Shown here in pieces: positions 1,234 to 32,000 of a stretch of 32,000 bases of DNA. The DNA lies in NCBI RefSeq assembly GCF_000020025.1, contig NC_010628.1, positions 6,960,001 through 6,992,000 on the forward strand. Direction: 5' to 3'. A program made the position numbers and the translations under genes. A model generated the notes under the pieces. It searched no databases and was not told where the DNA came from. It worked only from the letters and a program-made list of their open reading frames with translations. This DNA is from Nostoc punctiforme PCC 73102. GTDB lineage: Bacteria; Cyanobacteriota; Cyanobacteriia; Cyanobacteriales; Nostocaceae. The first letter of the stretch is position 1. Every line of letters begins with the position of its first letter.

Positions 1234-3186
1234 CTAAAGTCTATTGGTGTTGGTTGGTGGGCAGAACGAACAAGTCTGGACGCGAGAGAAGAGATTTGTA
1301 TTTAGAATTGTGGAATTAGGCAGCCAAGGCAGGTGTCCGTAGGAGGTACTTGTAGTATACGTAATCTCGTGACGGTCGAGCCATCGCTTCTCCATCGTTT
1401 CTTCTTGTTTAAATCCAAACCATAAATCTTTTACAACTTTCTCATCCTTGCGCCAGCTAATGCGATCGCCAAACTTGTCGTAGTCTCTTCCGACGCTTTC
1501 CCAAATGCGCTTTTGCACGCTAAATCCAAAACGCCCATTGCTATATTTTACCCACAGTTGGTCAATAGTGCGTAAGTCAGTACAAGGAAAGTTTTCAATA
1601 GATTCACTACTTAACCAGCCATCTTTTTCTCTGCCAGTAGCTTTGAGCATAACTGCTAAAGTTTCTTGATCTGCTTCTTTCCACTTTCCAGCTTTGAGTA
1701 AATCGTGTAACCGCGTATAGTCTACACCATTCTCAGAAATCAGGTCATCATTTTTTTGTTGTCGTGGGCGTTGCAGTGTTTCTGCTTCTTGTTGTCGTAC
1801 CTGCTCGGCTTTTTGTTGTTCTCGTTGTAGCCGCAACCTTTTTGCTTCTTCTCGTTGGCGTTTTAGTCTTTCTCCTTCTTGTTGTTGTCGTATTCTCTCG
1901 GCTTCTTCTATTGGAGCTAAAATTATTTCTTCAATTCTCTTTACATGCTCATTCTTAAGTCCTAACAACTGCTGGAACTGTTTTAATCCATTGTGTACAT
2001 ATTCATCTAGAGGATATTGTGCTTGAACTGCTTTTTTAAATTTCTGCTCATAACGCCGCAGGTTATTTCCGTACTCTTCTTTTTCTTGTTGTTTCTGTAT
2101 CTGAAGCTGTTTTTGATATTCCGCTTCTTTAATAGATGTAATCTCTAACTCAATCTGTGCTACATCCTCATCTCTTAAACCTAAAATATCCTGCTGATAA
2201 TCCTTCAGTTTATTCAGAGTAAATTCATATAGTGGATATTTTTGTTCAACAGCCTTGGCAAAAGCTTGTTTATAACTTTTTAAATTTGCAACTCGTCTAC
2301 GTAAAGGTTCTAAGACATCAGTTTCTATTTTCTCGGCTTTTTCATCTGTAAGTTCAAATGTTTTCCGTTTTGGCTTTAAAATTAAGAAAGCAAATTCATC
2401 AAGTTCACCATCTTCTTTGACATATTTTTCAACAAGCTTGCGATACTCTGCTTCTGGATTCTTTGGAGCATGAGCTAGAAAAATATTGTATCCTTCTTTA
2501 TCCAGAATGATATCTGGTGTCATATTAGACTTCACTATTTTGACTTTTGCCTTGGCGTAAGCATGCAATTCATGTACATAAATATTGCCATCGTTATCTT
2601 TGTCTGCTGCGCCTGTTTCAATTCCCTCAACTAAATACTGAGTGTAGAGCGAAAGTGTTGAACCTTCTTGTTCAAAAGAAGTTTGAGTTGCACTTGAAGA
2701 TGTGAGAACAACTCGTCCCTCCGCGCCTAACTGCTTCTTGATATCAACACCGACACTTTTTGTTCGCCAACCTTGAGCGATCGCACCACTGTAGCAAGCA
2801 TCTAAAATCAAAACTTGCCGTTTAGCATAGCAATTATTTGATTGTCCTCGGATGAAATTTGCGTCTACAGCAGTAGCTTCAAAATCTTCTTTAGCTGTAT
2901 TTCGAGTCGCTAAATAGAGATGATCTTCATCATTAGTAATACCATGACCAGAAAAAAAGAATAATACTAAGTCATCTTTTCCAGCTTCTCTAAACAGCTT
3001 TTGAATTGCCTTTCGCATGGCGATCGCATCGGGATTCAGCAGCCGTTCAATCTGCTCAAAACCTCCCAGGTTTGGGTTTTGCAAAACTCGCTGCATAGCT
3101 TCCACATCATTGAGAGCAGATGACAGGGGCGGGATACCTTCACCATACTCACTGACTCCAATCAGCAGCGCTATCTTCTTAGACAT
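1234..3186 (-). CDS. Orthocaspase (peptidase C14 caspase-like domain) fused to two ~70-aa helical repeat modules, a Q/E/R-rich coiled coil and a C-terminal GUN4-like domain
   Basis: The caspase His/Cys dyad contexts are FFFSGHGITN and LILDACYSGA. The middle has a duplicated module (KQAFAKAVEQKYPLYEF...LGLRDEDV and EQKFKKAVQAQYPLDEY...LGLKNEHV). The GUN4-like C-terminus reads DYTRLHDLLKAGKWKEADQET...FPCTDLRTIDQLWVKYSNGRFGFSVQ. The likely start is the ATG at 3186; the ORF track uses an upstream GTG at 3195. The ATG overlaps the stop of the upstream gene (ATGTCTAA). Confidence 0.88.
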   Translation of the reverse strand: MSKKIALLIGVSEYGEGIPPLSSALNDVEAMQRVLQNPNLGGFEQIERLLNPDAIAMRKAIQKLFREAGKDDLVLFFFSGHGITNDEDHLYLATRNTAKEDFEATAVDANFIRGQSNNCYAKRQVLILDACYSGAIAQGWRTKSVGVDIKKQLGAEGRVVLTSSSATQTSFEQEGSTLSLYTQYLVEGIETGAADKDNDGNIYVHELHAYAKAKVKIVKSNMTPDIILDKEGYNIFLAHAPKNPEAEYRKLVEKYVKEDGELDEFAFLILKPKRKTFELTDEKAEKIETDVLEPLRRRVANLKSYKQAFAKAVEQKYPLYEFTLNKLKDYQQDILGLRDEDVAQIELEITSIKEAEYQKQLQIQKQQEKEEYGNNLRRYEQKFKKAVQAQYPLDEYVHNGLKQFQQLLGLKNEHVKRIEEIILAPIEEAERIRQQQEGERLKRQREEAKRLRLQREQQKAEQVRQQEAETLQRPRQQKNDDLISENGVDYTRLHDLLKAGKWKEADQETLAVMLKATGREKDGWLSSESIENFPCTDLRTIDQLWVKYSNGRFGFSVQKRIWESVGRDYDKFGDRISWRKDEKVVKDLWFGFKQEETMEKRWLDRHEITYTTSTSYGHLPWLPNSTILNTNLFSRVQTCSFCPPTNTNRL

Positions 3187-3586
3187 TCCCGCCACCCATT
3201 GCTGCTAATAAGTCTTTTGCCACTCTCTCACTTTCTAGTAGCTCTTTTCGGCTTTTAGCTTCAATATTGACTTCTTTATCGCCAACTTTGACAGTAATTT
3301 TTATCGGTTTGTCACCCAGGCGATCGCCCAAGAAGCTTAAAAACCCTTTGACATTCTTTATACTCACCTCAGCCGTCAGCACTCCGATCAAAGTGGCAAA
3401 TCCTGGCTTGCTTCCCACTTCTGGGTTCAAATCTTCGGCGCGATCGGCCTTCTCCACCTCATCCAGATCCCTAATTTCCCGCAGCAGCTTGCTAGCTATT
3501 TTTTGCCGTCTCTCATCATCTAACTCTGGGTCATCAACGGCAAAGGTGAACTGAATCGTGGGTTTGCCTGTCATCATAACCTCCAA
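3179..3586 (-). CDS. Small EACC1-like protein (effector-associated constant component 1), co-transcribed with the orthocaspase
   Basis: The ORF is 135 aa. It has an acidic N-terminal helix (DDPELDDERRQKIASKLLREIRDLDEVE), a central G-rich hydrophobic segment (GSKPGFATLIGVLTAEVSIKNVKGFLSFLGDRL) and a C-terminal beta segment (IKITVKVGDKEVNIEAKS). This layout matches the EACC1 family as I remember it. Its stop overlaps the caspase start codon by 8 nt. Confidence 0.65.
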   Translation of the reverse strand: MEVMMTGKPTIQFTFAVDDPELDDERRQKIASKLLREIRDLDEVEKADRAEDLNPEVGSKPGFATLIGVLTAEVSIKNVKGFLSFLGDRLGDKPIKITVKVGDKEVNIEAKSRKELLESERVAKDLLAAMGGGNV

Positions 3587-3694: not shown

Positions 3695-4020
3695 TACGAA
3701 CGCTTATCCGTTGGTAACAAAAACTTATGCGTTCGTTACCAACACAATTTGTTTCGTTCAGAACGCTTATGCAATTGTTAACAACACAAGTTGTTTCGTT
3801 CAGAACACTTATGCGCTCGTTGACAACACAACTTGTTTTGTTCAGAACGCTTATGCAATTGTTAACAACACAACTTGTTTTGTTCAGAACGCTTATGCAA
3901 TTGTTACCACAACTTAAGTAAAGCTTATCAATGAAGTTGTTTCGTTACCAGAGTTTATCTATTTGTGACAAACACTTATGCGATCGTTAACAACACTTAA
4001 ATAAAACTTATCAATAAAGC
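3695..4020. repeat. Tandem repeat array, 42-bp period, with five well-conserved units at 3721-3930 and degenerate flanking copies
   Basis: The motif CTTATGC recurs at 3724, 3766, 3808, 3850 and 3892, exactly 42 bp apart. Related CTTATCC or CTTATCA copies lie at 3703, 3924 and 4007, and another CTTATGC at 3975. The unit is about ACGCTTATGCAATTGTTAACAACACAACTTGTTTTGTTCAGA and contains the adjacent palindromes CAATTG and GTTAAC plus the dyad AACAAC-ACAA-GTTGTT. Confidence 0.9.
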
Positions 4021-4272: not shown

Positions 4273-5046
4273 GTGACAAAAAACAATAAAAAAAAGGCTA
4301 TCGTTCAAGCTATTTTCACAGCCGTTGCCTTGGGTTTGGTGATAATGCAAGTGGAATCAGCCCAAGCTGCGACTTTGACGGTTAACAATCTTGATGACAG
4401 TGGTGTTGGCTCGTTGCGAGACACTATCAACATTGCAAGTAGCAATGACGTGGTAGAGTTCTTATTGGGTAGTAATCCCAGTACAATTACACTGACGAGT
4501 GGGGCACTTGCGATGCCTGCGGCGGGCTATGCCTACGTAAATAACCTAACTATCAATGGCCCAGGTAGTAATTTACTTACCATTAGTGGCAATAATCAAT
4601 TCCCCGTGTTTAACATTAACGCCGCAGATGTTACACTTTCCGGGCTAGCGATCGCTGGTGATATCAATGGTTACAATTCTAGTAACGTAACGTTTTTCAA
4701 TAGTACTGTTAACGACAACGTGAAAATAGATAACAGTACTGGTAACGTAACGTTTATTAATAGCACTATCAACGGCAATAGTGTGCAGATTAATGCTAAT
4801 ACATTGACGCTGATTAATGATAGTAATGTAACAGTTCCAAGTAACCCGATCGGCGGCGGCAATTCTGGGCAAAGCAGTAGGGGTGGCAATATTTCAATTG
4901 GAGCAGGCACCATCACTATTACAAGCCCTAACGTTACTCTGAGACAAGTACCCGAACCAAGTGCGATCGCTGGTGTTATACTTGCTGGTGGTCTGGCTTG
5001 GTTAGCGAAGAGAAAGCAAACCCCACTTTGTAAAGCAAAAGTATAA
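4273..5046 (+). CDS. Secreted PEP-CTERM-anchored protein with parallel beta-helix-like N/S/T-rich repeats
   Basis: A GTG start follows an AGGAG ribosome-binding site. The signal peptide is KKAIVQAIFTAVALGLVIMQVESAQA. Repeated NxTxxNSTVN motifs are present. The C-terminal PEP-CTERM sorting signal is VPEPSAIAGVILAGGLAWLAKRK. Confidence 0.85.
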   Translation: MTKNNKKKAIVQAIFTAVALGLVIMQVESAQAATLTVNNLDDSGVGSLRDTINIASSNDVVEFLLGSNPSTITLTSGALAMPAAGYAYVNNLTINGPGSNLLTISGNNQFPVFNINAADVTLSGLAIAGDINGYNSSNVTFFNSTVNDNVKIDNSTGNVTFINSTINGNSVQINANTLTLINDSNVTVPSNPIGGGNSGQSSRGGNISIGAGTITITSPNVTLRQVPEPSAIAGVILAGGLAWLAKRKQTPLCKAKV

Positions 5047-9708: not shown

Positions 9709-9865
9709 TAACCGAACCGTATTAGGCGATAGGTAGTTTACGAACTTAACTAGATACTTAACTAGATCCTTAACTTTCCTCAATTTACCGTTATCGCCCT
9801 GCCTGAGCAACTCCTATAGATTGAAAGTGTTCTAAAAGACACAGGAAATCAAAGGACAAAACATC

Positions 9866-12800
9866 ATGAGTTCAACAATCACCGAAATCATCTCAATTGT
9901 AAAAGACTCGATCGCAAAAACTGGACAATTCACCCTCAAGGATTCCACAATCAATACGCTTCCCCTCGGCAAATTGATGAATCTTTTAGAGATTCCACAA
10001 CTAGACTTCAACCTTATTGTTAGTGATTCTGAGAATACGATTACGATCGCAGGACAATCCTCGCTTCTGGGTGCTGGGAAGATTGCGATCGAAGCCACAT
10101 TTGGAGAAGTCGATGGTACGGTATCTTTTAGTGTGGGTGCTAAAGATATTTCGTCGTGTTACATTCCCGGAATCAGTTCCTTGGTATTAGAGCAGGGACA
10201 ATTTGCACTACATGTTACCGGAAAAGCTGATGACGTGACTGGGACATTTAGCGGCAGTATTCACGTGGGTGATACGACCATTTCGAATGCAGTATTTGAG
10301 GTTACTAAAAAAGACACTGATATTGTGTTGCATTGGATGATTGCGGAACTAGACCTACCTGCAATCTCAGATGTATTTCTGAATCATGTTTCCTTACCGG
10401 CTGAACTGCCTACTTTTCACTTCAAAGATATTGCGATCGCTATCTCGCCTCAAACAGGCGCATTTTCCTTTGAAATTATTGCTAAGGATCTTTGGGAATT
10501 TCCAGCCAATGGAGGCGATCTGAGTATTAGTGAAGTCAGCCTGACAATTGAGCGAGATCGGCGAGATAGCCTGACTCATTGCGCGATCACAATTCAAAGT
10601 AACGTTGAAAAAGAGATTGTCAACGGCTTGAAAATTAAAGATTTTCAACTCACTTTTGACTTGAAAGGAGAGGATTGGTCAGTTGACGGTAAAGTCAACG
10701 CCGATGTGTTTGATGATTCTGTCACCCTGGAGGCTAGCTACAACCAATCTCAGGCAGGCAAAACCCTGAAGCTGGCGGCTGAGGTTGATATGCATCCTGT
10801 AAATTTAGGGGAAATCAGCTTGAGTCTTTTTGGTTTGGAACTGGAGTTTACCAAACCTGCGGCTCAAGAAGGCGAAGTAGTTCCCCTCGAATGGAGCGTT
10901 GCGGCGGCAGGAAAACTATCGATTCCGGGTGCGATCGAGAGTGATGGCCAACTGACGATTTTTAGAGAAGAGAAAGCCAGGGGACTGCAATTTGAAGCAA
11001 TTCAGGCAGCCGTATCAATTCCGCTTCCGTCTACACAAGGCATGATGGAACTGAACTTTGAGCGTCTGTCAATTTCTGGCAGTTCCAGTGATTGGACATT
11101 TGCTGCTGCTGTCGATCTGGCATTTCAAGGCTTGAATCCCACCGTTCAAGCACATTTGCCGAAAGACCCGATCGCTATGACCTTTACGGCAAGCAAACAG
11201 GGGGTTATCCTGAGCATTGCTAGCAAGAGTGACATTGAGTCGATTTACTTCACCGTCCCACCAATCGAACTAGAGAGCGATCGCATCGAGTTAGGTACTG
11301 CCAAAATTGGGTTTTCTAGCCTCAGTATCCAATTAGGTCGAATTGTCGATCTAGAAGCAGAGTTGAATATCGGTCTACCCTCACAACTGAATAATCTATT
11401 TGGTCGCAAGAAAGACGAGAACGGACACATTGAAAACGATGCCGATGGCAACCCACTTCCAGCAGTAGAGTTCTTCCGCACCCTCGATTTACATGACGAA
11501 GCTGATACAACGGTGCAAGTGAAGCTCGTGATTAGTAAAGCAGGAATTACGCTCCTTCCTGAAACATCTTTTATTAAGGCCATCGAGTCGCAGACTGACG
11601 CAACTGGAAAATCTTTTTGGCATTGTGATTTCGGTGAATACGGTGAGATTAACGTCGATGTACCCAACTTTAGCTACACCGGATCAAGCTTTGCTGCCAG
11701 TGGTGGATTTGAGGTAGTCAAACCCTTGGCTTTACCACTAACCCCAATTCAGCATTTGTTAGCAGCTTGTAAACTTCCTGGTGCTGCCGCCATGCTGCCA
11801 GATCGTTTGCCTCTCGATCAAGAAATCAATGCTGAGAACTTTGTGGACAAGCTCACCGAACGTCTAGAAGCCTTACTTGCCAAGCTCGGTAGCGGCAAAC
11901 TGTCTAATGCAGCCAAAGAAGTTCTAGAGACTATCTCCCAAAGCTTCCACAAGCTCCCCACAAGCTTCATGGAATACCTCAACTTTAAAATGCCGCAAAG
12001 CTTCCAGTTTGAGGTTGCCGCCTCGCCTGCTGGAGCCTTGCAGTTTAAAGCTAGCGTCAAAAAAGACGATCCGCCAATTAAATTGCTGTTTCCTAGCTTG
12101 ATGCTGGGGATGCCTGTTCTCAATGGTGTGACGCTTCGCAGCATTTCCTTTGGTGAAACCGCAGGCGGACAGTTGTTCTTGCTAGAAATGGACGCTGATA
12201 TTGATCAGTTTGATTTAGCTACCTTAGTTGCTGCGATCGCATTGCCTGAAGATCGCGATCCGCTACCTAGTACTCAAGCAATACAACGTCGCTTGCGGTT
12301 AAACAATACGGTGATGGTGCTACCGCTTGAATTTCCGGTACCGATTCCCATGTTCTACGACAATATTGGTATCGAGTATCTGGGCTTAGAAGGCTTAACG
12401 CTCCAAGCACACGCCCAATTTCCTAAGCCGACAGTTGAACTTCAGAAAATTAGTAACTTGCTGTCTGATATCAAAGAGTTCTTCACTAACTCTGACCACC
12501 CAATTCCAAATCAGCTTCCTGTAGAATTCAAATTCTCGCTCAATCAAAACTATCTCCAACTTCCCAAGTATCTTGGCGGTCAAGCGCTAGGTACTCAAGG
12601 AGATGGACCCACCCTAGATGACAAAGATATAGTGCATCTACTCCAGGGGATAAGAACCTTGTCAGTGAATGAGTTGATTCAGGCATTACCACTAAATCAG
12701 CGCGTGGGCAGTACCCAGGTTTCCTTTGGGCCACTGTCTAGCAGTTTAGGCTGGCTGGTGACAACCCCTGATGAATTTAGTCAAATTATTACCCAACCAA

Positions 12801-22404: not shown

Positions 22405-22478
<74 letters not shown>

Positions 22479-22485
22479 TTTTTTT

Positions 22486-22600
22486 TGTACAGTGACTAAT
22501 TATTTGTCGTCGGTGACAGATTAATGTCGTTGGGACTAATTAACTGTCGTCGGGACGAATTGATGTCGTTTAGGTGCCAGTGACAGATTAATGTCATTTA
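22486..22600 (+). mobile_element. Transposon end: terminal TGTACAG plus five ~20-bp TnsB-binding-type direct repeats
   Basis: The terminus is TGTACAG at 22486-22492. The repeats are GTGACTAATTATTTGTCGTCGG (22492-22513), TGACAGATTAATGTCGTTGGG (22514-22534), GACTAATTAACTGTCGTCGG (22534-22553), GACGAATTGATGTCGTTTAGG (22554-22574) and TGACAGATTAATGTCATTTA (22581-22600). From memory this closely resembles the ShCAST donor end that I believe is called LE. Confidence 0.85.
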
Positions 22601-22621
22601 TTTACAGAGACTATAGCGATA

Positions 22622-22653
22622 ATGTCAACGTAGCGCTCTCTTTCAACCCTCCC
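22622..22653 (-). ncRNA. Delocalised short (homing) crRNA: truncated repeat GGGAGGGTTGAAAG plus tRNA-Val-matching spacer
   Basis: On the minus strand, a 14-nt truncated repeat (22653-22640) is followed by AGAGCGCTACGTTGACAT (22639-22622). That spacer is identical to 22426-22443 in the tRNA, and the match ends after 18 nt. Confidence 0.8.
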
Positions 22654-22664
22654 TAATAAAAATT

Positions 22665-23554
22665 ATGATAACCCACCTAGTACCTGGCAGGTTATTAAAA
22701 CATTTTTGTATGCGTGCGTAATGATTTCAGATTTGCCTTTCAACCCACCCAGTACCTGGAGGGTTGTTGCCACCAGGAGGCATCTAGAGGAATCCGATGG
22801 ATGGTTCTTTCAACCCACCCAGTACCTGGAGGGTTGTTGCCACACCATTAATCGCCATCCGCCAGATAGAATCCAATCTTTCAACCCACCCAGTACCTGG
22901 AGGGTTGTTGCCACATTCAAGATTATTTGGGGCATCGGAATATTAATCACTTTCAACCCACCCAGTACCTGGAGGGTTGTTGCCACGCAGAGCTTCTTCC
23001 CGGATGTTTTGAAGTTCGCCCTTTCAACCCACCCAGTACCTGGAGGGTTGTTGCCACACCAGGATTACCAATACACTCAGCAGTAAAACAACTTTCAACC
23101 CACCCAGTACCTGGAGGGTTGTTGCCACCGGTAAGCTTATTCTCATCAAAAGTGACATCCTCTTTCAACCCACCCAGTACCTGGAGGGTTGTTGCCACGG
23201 ACGTAACGAAAAAGGTATTCGCGAAAAGTTCTGCTTTCAACCCACCCAGTACCTGGAGGGTTGTTGCCACTATTAAGTGCTGTAGCAAATTCAGGTAATC
23301 TATCCTTTCAACCCACCCAGTACCTGGAGGGTTGTTGCCACTTCCGCACCGTTGTGGAACATGCCGTCGTTACTCTTTCAACCCACCCAGTACCTGGAGG
23401 GTTGTTGCCACATTAGGAGTGCAATGCCAGCGAAATACACACATTGGCTTTCAACCCACCCAGTACCTGGAGGGTTGTTGCCACATCCCATCGCATCTGC
23501 TATCCCCTGAGTAGCGCCTTTCAACCCACCCAGTACCTGGAGGGTTGTTGCCAC
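22665..23554 (-). CRISPR. Type V-K CRISPR array: 12 identical 37-nt repeats, 11 spacers of 33-36 nt, plus one more spacer and a degenerate terminal repeat
   Basis: The repeat on the transcribed minus strand is GTGGCAACAACCCTCCAGGTACTGGGTGGGTTGAAAG. Plus-strand repeat starts are 22737, 22807, 22878, 22950, 23021, 23092, 23162, 23234, 23305, 23375, 23448 and 23518, each 37 nt with no mismatches. The degenerate repeat is at 22665-22701 (ATGATAACCCACCTAGTACCTGGCAGGTTATTAAAAC). The leader is on the cas12k side, right of 23554. Confidence 0.95.
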
Positions 23555-23999: not shown

Positions 24000-25919
24000 T
24001 CAACTTCGCCTAGCTAGCCGATCATGGTAAGCAGAAAGTGCTAATTCCTTTGCTTGTTCATGAGGGCTACCTCTAACAGGTTGTTTTCCCTCTTCAATCA
24101 CAATTCCTGCCTGACTACCTTTACTTTGAATACTCTGTATTAATCTGCCATAGCTCCACTTGTGAACATTAACTCGGTATTGTTTGGCGTATTTTTGCTG
24201 AACTTCTACGGAGCCTGGACATTTTGCTTCGGCTATAGCTTGAATTTCACTTTGAACAATCTCTCGCATATCCCCTAGCTTAGGCAAAACTATATTGCCA
24301 GCTTTATAGGTTTGTGCGATCGCAATAATTTCTTTAGCCAATAATCTGTCTACATACTGCCCTAACTCAGATGTACCAAATTGATTGGGAGAGAAGCTTT
24401 TTTGTGCTTTGTGGCGTTCGTGGGATGATGATCGCTGTTGTCGTCTTTGCCGATTCAGAAGTTCGTAATTGTCGCCAAGTAACTGGCGGATACTCCGGTA
24501 AGCTAGAACTTTACCTGCGATCGCATCTACTACAGCTACGGTGGCAGGTTTTTCTAGTCCCAGGCTTACTCCAACCAAAATGTGTGATTGACCTTGGTAA
24601 AGGGGTTGACTAGGACGCTCAAAGCTATTATTCATTCGATTAAGCGTTGATTCTTTACGTTGAATAAAAGCTTTCTGTGTATCCTTTAGGTCACTTTTTT
24701 CTTTCATCTTCGTGATGAGTTTGCTAATTTCTTCTGCTTTCTCTTGGCGAACCTGTTCTGTTCCGTCAGCAGTCCATAGGCGATTGTCAACACAGCAGTA
24801 GAGGTTCAATCGGTTAAGGTTCCAAGGTTCGCTCTTACCCTCTCCTTCTTGCCAAACTAGGTGACCATTTCTGAGAGTGAATAAGCCACTAGAATACTGG
24901 CTTTTACTTTGGCGTTTAGTTTGTTGATCTTCTAGGAAACGTTGAAACCAGTGAAGTTGGCGATTGTCGCAGTATACCTCAAAGCTAAGATCGCTCAATC
25001 CATTGAAGTGAACACACAGCCTACCTTTTTGATTCTTTGACCAAACCATATCCTCGTTCGTTTCAAAAACAAGGGGGAATGGAAGAGAACTTGGTCGAGT
25101 TAATAGAATATCCTGCCAGCGCTTGGCTTCGGCGTTATCTTCAGGAAAGGTGGTTGTAGCAGTGAAGAGTGTCTCTAACCATTTACGATTGGTCAAATCT
25201 CGACCTTTAGGCATCCGACTTATTAACTTTTCGGTAAGCCTTTGAATTTGGATTTCAACTTGACGACGACGTTTAGCAAATTTTTCTGAATCTTCTTCTT
25301 TATCGCTAAGTTTGCAGCCATTTTTCAATAAGTAGCTGATGGCGCTGCGGCTAAGGATGTCTTCTGTCTCTTGGTAAGCTTCAAATAATTTATTGGATAA
25401 ACTGCGGTCAGAACTAGATGACGAGGATTTTTTAGCCTCCTTGCCCTTTTTTGTTTTGGGTTGAGAGCTATCTGAGTCAGATGTTGGCATAGCTTTTGCC
25501 AAAATTTCAGAGGCTTTGGTACGAATAGCCCCCATACTAGAACCGCTAGTTTCCACAAGTTCAACATCACTGTTGAGCATTTCTAGCCAGCGCATTTTGC
25601 CGTCTAGCTGTTGCTGTAGACGTTTTTGTATAGCCAGCCAAGACTTGTAGATGTAGTCCACAATATGAATCGCCGACATATATAAACGGCTAGGTTGACC
25701 TACAAAGCGAGGGTCAGTCTTGAGAGGTTGGCACAGTTGACTAACAACAGTTGTTGGAAGCTTACCTTGTTGTCGCCAATTCTCGAAGTCTGGGTGTTTA
25801 CCAAGTTGTTCAATTAGTTCATTAATTAAGGGTGTGTTTAAAGTTGCCATCAATTTCCACAGTTTTTGGCGGGTTGATTCACTGGCAATAAGACGGCACT
25901 GGATAGTAATCTGACTCAT
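24000..25919 (-). CDS. cas12k: Cas12k (type V-K effector, naturally nuclease-deficient)
   Basis: The ORF is 639 aa. From memory, MSQITIQCRLIASESTRQKLWKLMATLNTPLINELIEQLGKHPDFENWRQQGKLPTTVVSQLCQPLKTDPRF... is nearly identical to the ShCas12k N-terminus. RuvC-like motifs carry substitutions at catalytic positions: GVSLGLEKP where active enzymes have an Asp, and IVLPKLGDM where they have a Glu. The gene is adjacent to the tracrRNA and array. Confidence 0.93.
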   Translation of the reverse strand: MSQITIQCRLIASESTRQKLWKLMATLNTPLINELIEQLGKHPDFENWRQQGKLPTTVVSQLCQPLKTDPRFVGQPSRLYMSAIHIVDYIYKSWLAIQKRLQQQLDGKMRWLEMLNSDVELVETSGSSMGAIRTKASEILAKAMPTSDSDSSQPKTKKGKEAKKSSSSSSDRSLSNKLFEAYQETEDILSRSAISYLLKNGCKLSDKEEDSEKFAKRRRQVEIQIQRLTEKLISRMPKGRDLTNRKWLETLFTATTTFPEDNAEAKRWQDILLTRPSSLPFPLVFETNEDMVWSKNQKGRLCVHFNGLSDLSFEVYCDNRQLHWFQRFLEDQQTKRQSKSQYSSGLFTLRNGHLVWQEGEGKSEPWNLNRLNLYCCVDNRLWTADGTEQVRQEKAEEISKLITKMKEKSDLKDTQKAFIQRKESTLNRMNNSFERPSQPLYQGQSHILVGVSLGLEKPATVAVVDAIAGKVLAYRSIRQLLGDNYELLNRQRRQQRSSSHERHKAQKSFSPNQFGTSELGQYVDRLLAKEIIAIAQTYKAGNIVLPKLGDMREIVQSEIQAIAEAKCPGSVEVQQKYAKQYRVNVHKWSYGRLIQSIQSKGSQAGIVIEEGKQPVRGSPHEQAKELALSAYHDRLARRS

Positions 25920-25938
25920 AAAAATAAAATATCATATA

Positions 25939-25953
25939 AATACACTATGTATT
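25939..25953. promoter_or_regulatory. Perfect 6-3-6 palindrome AATACA-CTA-TGTATT in the cas12k/cvkR divergent promoter; candidate CvkR operator
   Basis: The palindrome was read directly. It lies 20 bp upstream of the cas12k ATG and 47 bp upstream of the cvkR ATG at 26000. It resembles the ACA..TGT inverted-repeat operator reported for CvkR, which is a recollection. Confidence 0.55.
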
Positions 25954-25999
25954 CTTAAAAAAATTAAATTTAAAAAGTTGCTTCTGTAGGATGATTTCT

Positions 26000-26452
26000 A
26001 TGGAAGAAAAATTCTACACAAGCACAGAAGCTGCTGAAATTACTAATTGTTCCCGTCGTCAATTACAGTATTGGCGAGATAAAGGTGTTGTTATACCAAC
26101 TGTGAATACCACAGGTAAGGGACGTAATGTTTACTACTCCGTAGCTGACCTGTTGACGCTAACTGTGATGCATTATTTATTGTCTGTTGGCTTAAGCTTT
26201 GAAGTTTGCCGGGAAGCTTTGGCTATGTTGCAAGATAAGGAGCCTTGGCTGTTTGAGGAATTTGTGTCTAAAAAAAAGATGAGGCGACTGATGCTGATAT
26301 CTAACGCCTCTCAGCAAAAGTATTTAACATTAGCAGAATTTGATAAAGAGGCAGCGCTAGAAGCTCTTTGTCAAGGGCAGACTGTAATTCCTTTTTGGTG
26401 CGATCGCATTCACGAAGTCTTACACCAAAACCTCAAACGCTTTAGTGAGTAA
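26000..26452 (+). CDS. cvkR: MerR-family HTH regulator, CvkR-type repressor of V-K CAST
   Basis: The MerR N-terminal helix-turn-helix is YTSTEAAEITNCSRRQLQYWRDKGVVIPT. The gene is divergent from cas12k, as in Anabaena PCC 7120 (alr3614/all3613). Starting at the second ATG (MEEKFY) gives 150 aa; the first ATG at 25991 gives 153 aa. Confidence 0.8.
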   Translation: MEEKFYTSTEAAEITNCSRRQLQYWRDKGVVIPTVNTTGKGRNVYYSVADLLTLTVMHYLLSVGLSFEVCREALAMLQDKEPWLFEEFVSKKKMRRLMLISNASQQKYLTLAEFDKEAALEALCQGQTVIPFWCDRIHEVLHQNLKRFSE

Positions 26453-26740
26453 CATTAAGTACTATATGCTGCATAACAATACTTATAATTTAGTAACATT
26501 ATGCTTTACCCAGAATCTGAAAAAGCCTAGACCTCTCTCAAAACTCAACTACAGCAGATCAAGCCTGTTGACATCTAGAAAAATACAATTTACTAATTGC
26601 CTAATAAAAGCCGTAAATTTACATACAGCTTGTAGCTATTTACCAATTACCCTTATAAAAAGATTGAGGGTATATTTCTGCTGTGTATATAAATAAGCAC
26701 TTTAACATAGCCAAGTTAGCTGCGGGTTAATGCGGAAGTT

Positions 26741-30988: not shown

Positions 30989-32000
30989 ATGAACCGCACC
31001 GCTATCAAAAACTTTGCTATTTGGGCGCGTCGTTACCTACGAGAACAAGTTAAAGCTCGTGCTGCCCAATTTGGTATAACTCACAAAAGTATTACAGAAC
31101 CTCAGACAGTGGCGGGGGGACTATTAGTAGCTGGTCAAACGCTAAATACCACGGAAGCAAACCAGTATCATCAACTGCGAAATCGCTTGCAAGATTTAAC
31201 ACTAAGTTCCAGCCAGTCCCAGGCGGTAGATGCGCTGATAGATGAAATTGCCTACACCTGGTTTAACCGTTTGGCGGCATTGCGGTTTATGGAGGTGAAT
31301 GGATATATCGGGCGGGTGTTGAGTAGTAGCGATCCAAATTTGGTAGACCCTGATTTGTTACGCGATGCTAGTTCTATTGCCGAAATGGGAGATTTACCGG
31401 GTCTTGATTTGGATACTCTCAATGAGTGGCGTAGTTTTGCCAATCGTGATCCCAACCCCGATGAGTTTCTCTACCGCCGTTTGCTGTTAGCTCAGTGTAA
31501 AGCTTTGGCAGAGGGAATTCCAGCACTGTTTGACCCTCGCCAGAACTACCAAGCGCTGTTTTTACCTGGAAATTTGTTAAATCAGGATTCAATTGTACGG
31601 CGGCTGGTAAAAGAGATTCCAGAGGAGGACTGGCAGAATATTGAAGTAGTGGGTTGGCTGTATCAGTTCTACATTTCGGAACGCAAGGATGAGGTGATTG
31701 GGGCAAAGTCGAAGGTTGCAGCCGCAGATATTCCAGCAGCGACTCAATTGTTTACCCCCCACTGGATTGTTCGGTATATGGTGGAGAACAGTTTAGGGCG
31801 GTTATGGTTAGAGGCGCACCCAGAATCACGCTTGCGTGAGTATATGCCTTACTATTTGGAAAATCCTAACGATAATGGTGAGGGTGAAAAACCGCAAGCT
31901 TTAACGCCTCAAGAGTTGACCGTGATAGACCCTGCTTGTGGTAGTGGTCATATTTTGGTGTATGCGTTTGATTTGCTGTTTGAAATTTACAAAGAACAAG
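30989..32000 (+). CDS. pglX: BREX adenine methyltransferase PglX, 5' part (runs off the window)
   Basis: The ATG is at 30989, and the ORF is absent from the track because it has no stop in the window. It translates as MNRTAIKNFAIWARRYLREQV...EIAYTWFNRLAALRFMEVNGYI...QLFTPHWIVRYMVENSLGRLW...IDPACGSGHILVYAFDLLFEIY (SAM-binding motif I). Confidence 0.85.
   Translation, partial: MNRTAIKNFAIWARRYLREQVKARAAQFGITHKSITEPQTVAGGLLVAGQTLNTTEANQYHQLRNRLQDLTLSSSQSQAVDALIDEIAYTWFNRLAALRFMEVNGYIGRVLSSSDPNLVDPDLLRDASSIAEMGDLPGLDLDTLNEWRSFANRDPNPDEFLYRRLLLAQCKALAEGIPALFDPRQNYQALFLPGNLLNQDSIVRRLVKEIPEEDWQNIEVVGWLYQFYISERKDEVIGAKSKVAAADIPAATQLFTPHWIVRYMVENSLGRLWLEAHPESRLREYMPYYLENPNDNGEGEKPQALTPQELTVIDPACGSGHILVYAFDLLFEIYKEQ

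Follow-up and report, generated by a model that had tools for sequence, protein, structure and literature searches.

In the type V-K CRISPR-associated transposon (CAST) of Nostoc punctiforme PCC 73102, the regulatory module very probably consists of the repressor CvkR acting on cas12k through an operator at positions 25939-25953 of the window, that is, of the whole 32,000-nt stretch of DNA that was analysed. The features of this module are as follows.

24000-25919, minus strand: cas12k coding sequence, 639 aa, the predicted target of repression
25926-25934, minus strand: extended -10 element of the cas12k promoter (Pcas12k), TGATATTTT, with TG at -15/-14 and TATTTT at -12 to -7 (A of the cas12k ATG as +1)
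25939-25953, no strand assigned: candidate CvkR operator AATACACTATGTATT, a 15-bp 7-1-7 inverted repeat at -34 to -20 of cas12k
25953-25958, minus strand: -35-like TTAAGA of Pcas12k, 21 nt upstream of TATTTT, a weak and inferred element from a consensus scan
25987-25992, plus strand: -10 element of the cvkR promoter (PcvkR), TAGGAT, at -13 to -8 from the ATG at 26000
26000-26452, plus strand: cvkR coding sequence, 150 aa, predicted repressor of the MerR family

The MerR-type helix-turn-helix protein had been taken for CvkR in an initial annotation of the sequence, and comparison with published proteins bore this out. The cvkR product was identical to Alr3614/CvkR of Anabaena 7120 in 103 of 149 residues (69%, ungapped), and the 150-aa protein of the window was identical to WP_012411902.1. 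In Ziemann et al. (2023; PMC9938897), Supplementary Data 1 gives this entry under Nostoc punctiforme PCC 73102 with the label CvkR. When the ORF was read as 153 aa, its residues 9-78 matched the Pfam family MerR_1 (E = 3.1e-17), and a match to PDB entry 7XN2 (Alr3614) extended over residues 2-152 with the non-canonical C-terminal region included (E = 3.4e-68). NCBIfam held no dedicated CvkR model, and the sole match there was a sub-threshold one to CueR. Six of the seven putative DNA-contact residues were kept (R19, R20, Q23, Y24, K40 and R42); the seventh, N66, was replaced by S, which is the majority residue at this position across 20 aligned homologues. In Anabaena, a CvkR variant with five of those contact residues and N66 mutated lost binding, and R42E alone had the same effect (PMC9938897).

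The size of the protein had been given as 150-153 aa, and only the lower figure was upheld by the starts of the homologues and by the position of the -10 box. Two start codons on the plus strand are available, at 25991 (153 aa) and at 26000 (150 aa), both leading to the same end at 26452. Nearly all of the 120 homologue matches listed were called at or near 150 aa, and the aligned relatives began with MEEKFYTSTE or MEGKFYTSTE; the short form of Alr3614 is supported by 49 of 53 homologues (PMC9938897). We take 26000 as the true start, since the first two letters of the ATG at 25991 are also the end of the TAGGAT box. That a 153-aa ORF appears at all is explained in the same way, its ATG (25991-25993) falling on the conserved TAGGAT, with the G that completes the ATG conserved too. 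For comparison, 80 loci encoding CvkR relatives were fetched, none of them 100% identical to the window; cvkR started with ATG in 77 of these, and the remaining three alignments began downstream of the start codon.

The gene opposite to cvkR was clearly recognised as cas12k, with 978 bits to the NCBIfam model NF038191 (V_Cas12k) and 1209 bits over residues 1-639 to ShCas12k (PDB 7N3O). Its first 25 residues matched WP_012411901.1 in Supplementary Data 1 of PMC9938897, and a longer printed passage agreed with the ORF. The head-to-head arrangement of the two genes was as previously described: exactly 80 nt (25920-25999) lay between the start codons of cas12k and of cvkR (26000), a gap typical of the family (80-81 nt). 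Divergent cas12k was present in 75 of the 80 related loci with gaps of 64-111 nt, 41 of them being 80 or 81 nt, and it started with ATG in 73 of those 75. The BREX cargo genes brxB and brxC were found downstream of cvkR. The N. punctiforme PCC 73102 element has been reported to span 6982486-7010421 (27.9 kb; PMC9938897). Since the regulator is identical to, and the start of Cas12k matches, entries of Supplementary Data 1 in that paper, the locus had already been catalogued; the CvkR gene and the element of N. punctiforme are thus published, and the earlier recognition of them was correct and not new.

On the plus strand, AATACA (25939-25944), CTA (25945-25947) and TGTATT (25948-25953) form a perfect 6-3-6 inverted repeat within the AT-rich 80-nt gap, exactly where it had been placed by the initial annotation. 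It can be called a perfect palindrome in this 6-3-6 reading; the functional 7-1-7 unit is an imperfect one (AATACAC / ATGTATT). For Anabaena 7120, DNase I footprinting and EMSA with the cas12k and tnsB promoters gave 5'-AnnACATnATGTnnT-3' as the CvkR operator (PMC9938897). A motif scan showed that AATACACTATGTATT differs from this sequence by a single mismatch, namely at position 7, where it has C in place of T. It spans -61 to -47 relative to the cvkR ATG, and the best motif match began at -60 to -66 from the cvkR ATG in about 60 of the 80 related loci. When 26 loci with gaps of 80 or 81 nt were aligned, the window site fell column by column onto fully consensus-matching operators, including those of ShCAST and of Anabaena-type loci. 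The identical 15-mer was present in seven loci of the closest clade (L001-L005, L007 and L049) and also in Desmonostoc locus L088. The proposal that the palindrome is the CvkR operator of cas12k is well supported by this one-mismatch match to the published motif at a conserved position, and it is on these two features, not on the bare palindrome, that the predicted operator at 25939-25953 rests.

The same 26-locus alignment was used to define the promoter elements on both sides. For Pcas12k, the columns T-12, A-11, T-7 and T-15 were invariant and G-14 was at least 90% conserved, and for PcvkR the T, A and final T of TAGGAT were invariant. No indels were found beside either ATG. The candidate operator extends from the final base of TTAAGA (25958-25953) to 5 nt before the TG; it is upstream of the cvkR core promoter, with 11 nt between it and the -35 region of PcvkR. 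The 80 nt had been described as one shared promoter; the common gap was confirmed, and what it contains is two back-to-back promoters with the operator in Pcas12k only. The -35/-10 spacer of Anabaena Pcas12k is also 21 nt long (PMC9938897). Orthology of the protein, together with conservation of the motif, of its position and of the promoter boxes, was observed directly. Apart from these elements, most Anabaena-type 81-nt loci were seen to have an extra conserved half-site, ATGTGTTTT, between the operator and cvkR, some 10 nt from the operator, and TTAAATTTA takes its place in the window clade (25963-25972 of the window) and in ShCAST.

The geometry of the promoters bears on the transcription starts as well. 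Because the -10 columns are conserved and no indels occur between box and ATG, the start of cas12k is predicted at the A of its ATG, and no Shine-Dalgarno sequence was read upstream of this gene. In Anabaena 7120, dRNA-seq placed the starts of both cas12k and cvkR at the A of the ATG, so that both mRNAs are leaderless there (PMC9938897). By analogy, leaderless cas12k and cvkR mRNAs would fit the promoter geometry and the near-universal ATG starts at the window locus. That the cvkR mRNA is strictly leaderless is less certain: should a longer transcript exist, the AGGA within TAGGAT, which precedes the ATG by 8 nt, could serve it as a Shine-Dalgarno sequence.

By analogy with Anabaena we infer how the module may work at this locus, including CvkR binding, cas12k repression and the transcription start sites. 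CvkR would act as a homodimer of the 150-aa MerR-family protein and as a repressor. Its operator would occupy most of the 21-nt spacer between TTAAGA and TGATATTTT, and the bound dimer would block RNA polymerase from the spacer/-35 region of Pcas12k; with the polymerase kept off the promoter, little Cas12k would be made. Transcription of cas12k and cvkR would each begin from the A of its own ATG, yielding leaderless mRNAs, and a second operator would be expected just upstream of tnsB, beyond the window. Since 11 nt lie between the operator and the PcvkR -35 region, cvkR is probably not autoregulated. Against autoregulation also speaks the behaviour of Anabaena CvkR, which bound P43, the cas12k half of the intergenic region, and did not bind P45, the cvkR half (PMC9938897).

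It had also been claimed that CvkR of Anabaena represses cas12k and hence CAST activity. In Anabaena, repression by CvkR was demonstrated for the cas12k and tnsB transcripts, with an indirect effect on tracrRNA (PMC9938897), so the first half of the claim holds for the Anabaena cas12k transcript; the second half goes beyond the published data, and, as far as we could see, Ziemann et al. (2023, Nat Commun 14:924; PMC9938897) report no assay of transposition. To call the system the on/off switch of the transposon is an over-reach, as repression at the transcript level is what has been published even in Anabaena.

The placement of the operator inside the spacer invites comparison with a classical MerR switch, in which CvkR would sit in an over-long spacer and an effector would cause it to untwist the DNA and activate cas12k instead of merely relieving its repression. 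In the promoters regulated by MerR, CueR and SoxR, the operator is located inside the -35/-10 spacer, as it is in Pcas12k, and the 21 nt between TTAAGA and TATTTT, the same as in Anabaena, would suit such a mechanism. For the Anabaena promoter, a DNA-distortion mechanism was raised by Ziemann et al. themselves (PMC9938897). We nevertheless consider activation of this kind quite unlikely, since in Anabaena the cas12k transcripts increase when cvkR is deleted, and in a cell-free system a reporter is expressed from Pcas12k with no CvkR present (PMC9938897). CvkR is thus dispensable for promoter activity in the cell as well as in the cell-free system, which argues that no activator is needed. Furthermore, the conserved TG makes Pcas12k an extended -10 promoter that should be largely independent of its -35 spacing, and the structure of CvkR has no recognisable effector pocket (PMC9938897).

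Simple repression by CvkR would place it beside McdR (from mycobacteria), HnoC and BldC, which by description are MerR-fold repressors that occupy promoter DNA and are not distortion activators. The operators of these three are described as overlapping the -10 element and the transcription start, whereas the window operator lies in the spacer. We know of no link of McdR, HnoC or BldC to transposons or CRISPR systems. Anabaena CvkR and McdR share 33% identity (PMC9938897).

The single mismatch of the operator deserved separate attention. Relative to the consensus-form operator AATACATTATGTATT, the window operator AATACACTATGTATT has C25945 in place of T. The commonest natural deviation, seen in 12% of symmetrised sites, was this C at position 7 or its symmetric counterpart, G at position 9; the operator of locus L051, AATACATTGTGTATT, carries the mirror change, and that of L011 carries both changes (ACAC-A-GTGT). 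Judging from these sequences, the published consensus might be better written as AnnACAYnRTGTnnT. The window CvkR and the ShCAST CvkR have the same recognition helix, and so there is no sign of a compensating protein change for C7.

One could argue that C7 weakens binding and that the operator is decaying or non-functional, leaving cas12k partly or fully derepressed in this lineage. With a weight matrix built from 31 CvkR sites of other loci, AATACACTATGTATT scored 12.6 bits; the 31 training sites scored 13.5-23.6 bits, so that AATACACTATGTATT is the weakest of the family. Of the two half-sites, the one on the cas12k side differs among members of the closest clade, being ACAC in the window, ATAC in L006 and ACGC in L008; the other half-site is altered only in L051, and the window clade is without the extra ATGTGTT half-site that most 81-nt loci have. 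All of this would fit decay, but the identical 15-mer has been kept in L001-L005, L007, L049 and Desmonostoc L088, the C7/G9 deviation is the commonest variant among otherwise intact systems, the core ACA/TGT triplets of AATACACTATGTATT are intact, and L011, by carrying both changes, preserves the dyad symmetry. We therefore judge a decaying operator to be very unlikely.

A broader suggestion is that either the operator is drifting, with the asymmetric ACAC and the loss of the ATGTGTT half-site making the repression of cas12k in the N. punctiforme-type clade leakier than in Anabaena or ShCAST, or CvkR has a role beyond cas12k; we hold this to be unlikely. Hints at a role beyond cas12k come from the loss of cas12k with cvkR kept in Desmonostoc muscorum and from a weak site between cvkR and brxB. 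In Desmonostoc muscorum LEGE 12446 (L088, 9500-10010), a 99%-identical cvkR was found with the same operator and BREX genes and with tRNA-Val adjoining. Its cas12k was reduced to roughly the first dozen codons and the tracrRNA was also gone; neither a full-length cas12k nor a CRISPR array was seen in the 10 kb upstream. This locus is a decayed CAST that has retained its repressor. The weak site, GTAACATTATGCTTT, is at 26493-26507, 41 nt past the cvkR stop and upstream of brxB; it is motif-like with two mismatches and scored 7.6 bits. TATAAT (26484-26489) lies just before it, and in L001-L003 the site was kept and TATAAT was not. No family-wide motif signal was found downstream of cvkR across the related loci. 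With its low score, the unconserved TATAAT and the missing family signal, GTAACATTATGCTTT was treated as probably a chance match and not as a CvkR site.

Operators of a different form were met elsewhere in the family. Loci L061-L080 encode a second CvkR subgroup, about 48% identical, with the N-terminus MQETFFTSKE and with R19 changed to L and K40 to T. Their gaps are 64-71 nt, and two tandem ACA-N4-TGT sites (e.g. AACAATATTGT and AACATATTTGT) replace the ACA-N3-TGT operator, which suggests from sequence that repressor and operator specificity may have changed together. In Mojavia pulchra (L046), a second cvkR paralogue directly follows the first and has its own perfect motif, AGTACATCATGTGCT (4491-4505), 63 nt upstream of its ATG.

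To see how much weight the palindrome and the motif can bear by themselves, both were compared with chance. Of 20,000 shuffles of the 80-nt spacer, 8,494 (42%) contained a palindrome as good as the observed one, counting any perfect inverted repeat whose arms were 6 nt or longer and whose loop was 0-5 nt; significance of the bare palindrome was therefore rejected. The weight-matrix score of AATACACTATGTATT was reached by only 26 of 20,000 spacer shuffles. Across the window, about 1.6 one-mismatch motif matches are expected by chance, and three other 15-mers scored at least as high as AATACACTATGTATT, one at 9858 and two in tandem-repeat copies at 3825 and 3867. As AATACACTATGTATT ranked only fourth, the matrix scan alone was discarded as a means of singling out the operator, and it is position, not sequence by itself, that singles it out within the window. 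If the palindrome had arisen by chance in AT-rich DNA, or belonged to some unrelated regulator, CvkR would act elsewhere. This reading would agree with the 42% of shuffles and the 1.6 expected matches, but we give it practically no credence in view of the positional conservation in about 60 loci, the column alignment with full-consensus operators, the 26 in 20,000 local shuffles that matched the score, and, for an unrelated regulator, the fact that by eye no NtcA-type GTA-N8-TAC site was seen in the spacer.

The other high-scoring matches lie in unrelated surroundings. The top one, AAAACATCATGAGTT at 9858-9872 (13.6 bits, one mismatch), overlaps the ATG of a 1809-aa Laminin_G_3 protein outside the transposon. 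At about 3700-3990, between the ORFs at 3179-3586 (minus strand) and 4273-5046 (plus strand), there is a tandem repeat of about 42 nt, GTTCAGAACGCTTATGCAATTGTTAACAACACAACTTGTTTT, whose AACACAAnTTGTTT cores give rise to spurious CvkR-matrix matches of 13.3 bits. No Pfam match was obtained for either of the two flanking ORFs.

In Anabaena, a second CvkR operator is present at PtnsB (PMC9938897). The tnsB gene of the window element lies beyond base 32000, and the motif was therefore looked up in relatives; it was found 34 nt upstream of the tnsB ATG in L050 (ATAACATTATGTATT) and in L087 (ATAACAATATGTTTT), just inside the left-end repeats of TnsB sites. The TnsB ORF of L050 matched the PDB entry of ShTnsB and showed 80% identity to an approximate ShTnsB query sequence. 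With this query, the TnsB search returned no entry named for N. punctiforme, and the candidates P0134 and P0121 were rejected as a source of tnsB for the window element since they came from other organisms. Contigs bearing the brxC of the window were at most 11 kb long and ended in pglX, and the 10-kb flank of Desmonostoc L088 ended inside BREX.

The opposite end of the element lies within the window and showed the following features.

22405-22478, plus strand: tRNA-Val(GAC), found by ARAGORN and Rfam, the attachment site beside the transposon right end
22622-22653, minus strand: putative short homing crRNA, made of the truncated repeat CTTTCAACCCTCCC (22640-22653) and the 18-nt spacer ATGTCAACGTAGCGCTCT (22622-22639)
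22665-22714, minus strand: degenerate CRISPR repeat copy, from a repeat-family search
22737-23554, minus strand: type V-K CRISPR array of 12 repeats (Rfam CRISPR-DR15, 12 matches)

Directly after tRNA-Val, at 22494-22620, repeated units of about 20 nt (GACTAATTATTTGTCGTCGG and similar ones, with TGTCGT cores) were observed; they probably serve TnsB as binding repeats at the right end of the transposon. The repeat-family search picked out end-like repeats at 22494-22553. Over its 18 nt, ATGTCAACGTAGCGCTCT is the exact reverse complement of 22426-22443 in tRNA-Val. The segment 22622-22653 has the right-end repeats on one side and the main array on the other, and it looks like a "delocalised" homing crRNA of type V-K CASTs.

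Two characterised elements allow the module to be placed. Like the window, the AnCAST of Anabaena encodes a 150-aa CvkR (Alr3614, PDB 7XN2) with a MerR winged-helix N-terminus and an unusual C-terminal dimerisation region, divergent from a 639-aa cas12k across a gap of about 80 nt (82 in Anabaena, 80 in the window). Both have a 15-bp operator inside a 21-nt -35/-10 spacer and start codons at the predicted transcription starts. They differ in the operator, which is AATACACTATGTATT with C at inner position 7 in the window and ATAACATTATGTGTT in Anabaena, in residues 66 and 134 of CvkR (S and C in the window, N and S in Anabaena), and in the cargo, since a BREX system lies beside the window cvkR, unlike in AnCAST. 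Binding, repression and leaderless starts have been shown for the Anabaena orthologue (PMC9938897). According to its legend, the promoter alignment in Supplementary Fig. 6 of that paper covers the AnCAST subgroup (PMC9938897). The closest characterised transposon is ShCAST of Scytonema hofmanni UTEX 2349, whose CvkR (WP_029636314.1) is 81% identical to that of the window. The two agree in the 80-nt gap, in the promoter blocks on either side and in AATACA as the left arm of the operator; the ShCAST operator (L009), AATACATAATGTGCT, occupies the same place with zero mismatches, compared with one in the window.

Type V-K CASTs are under development as genome-insertion tools, and to our knowledge CvkR is the sole characterised native regulator of these transposons. 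The window locus itself brings nothing conceptually new. The present analysis corrects the gene start to that of the 150-aa protein and makes clear that the palindrome is meaningful only through its motif match and its conserved position. As a natural C7 operator variant near its ShCAST relative, the locus could serve to gauge how much sequence change the repressor tolerates.
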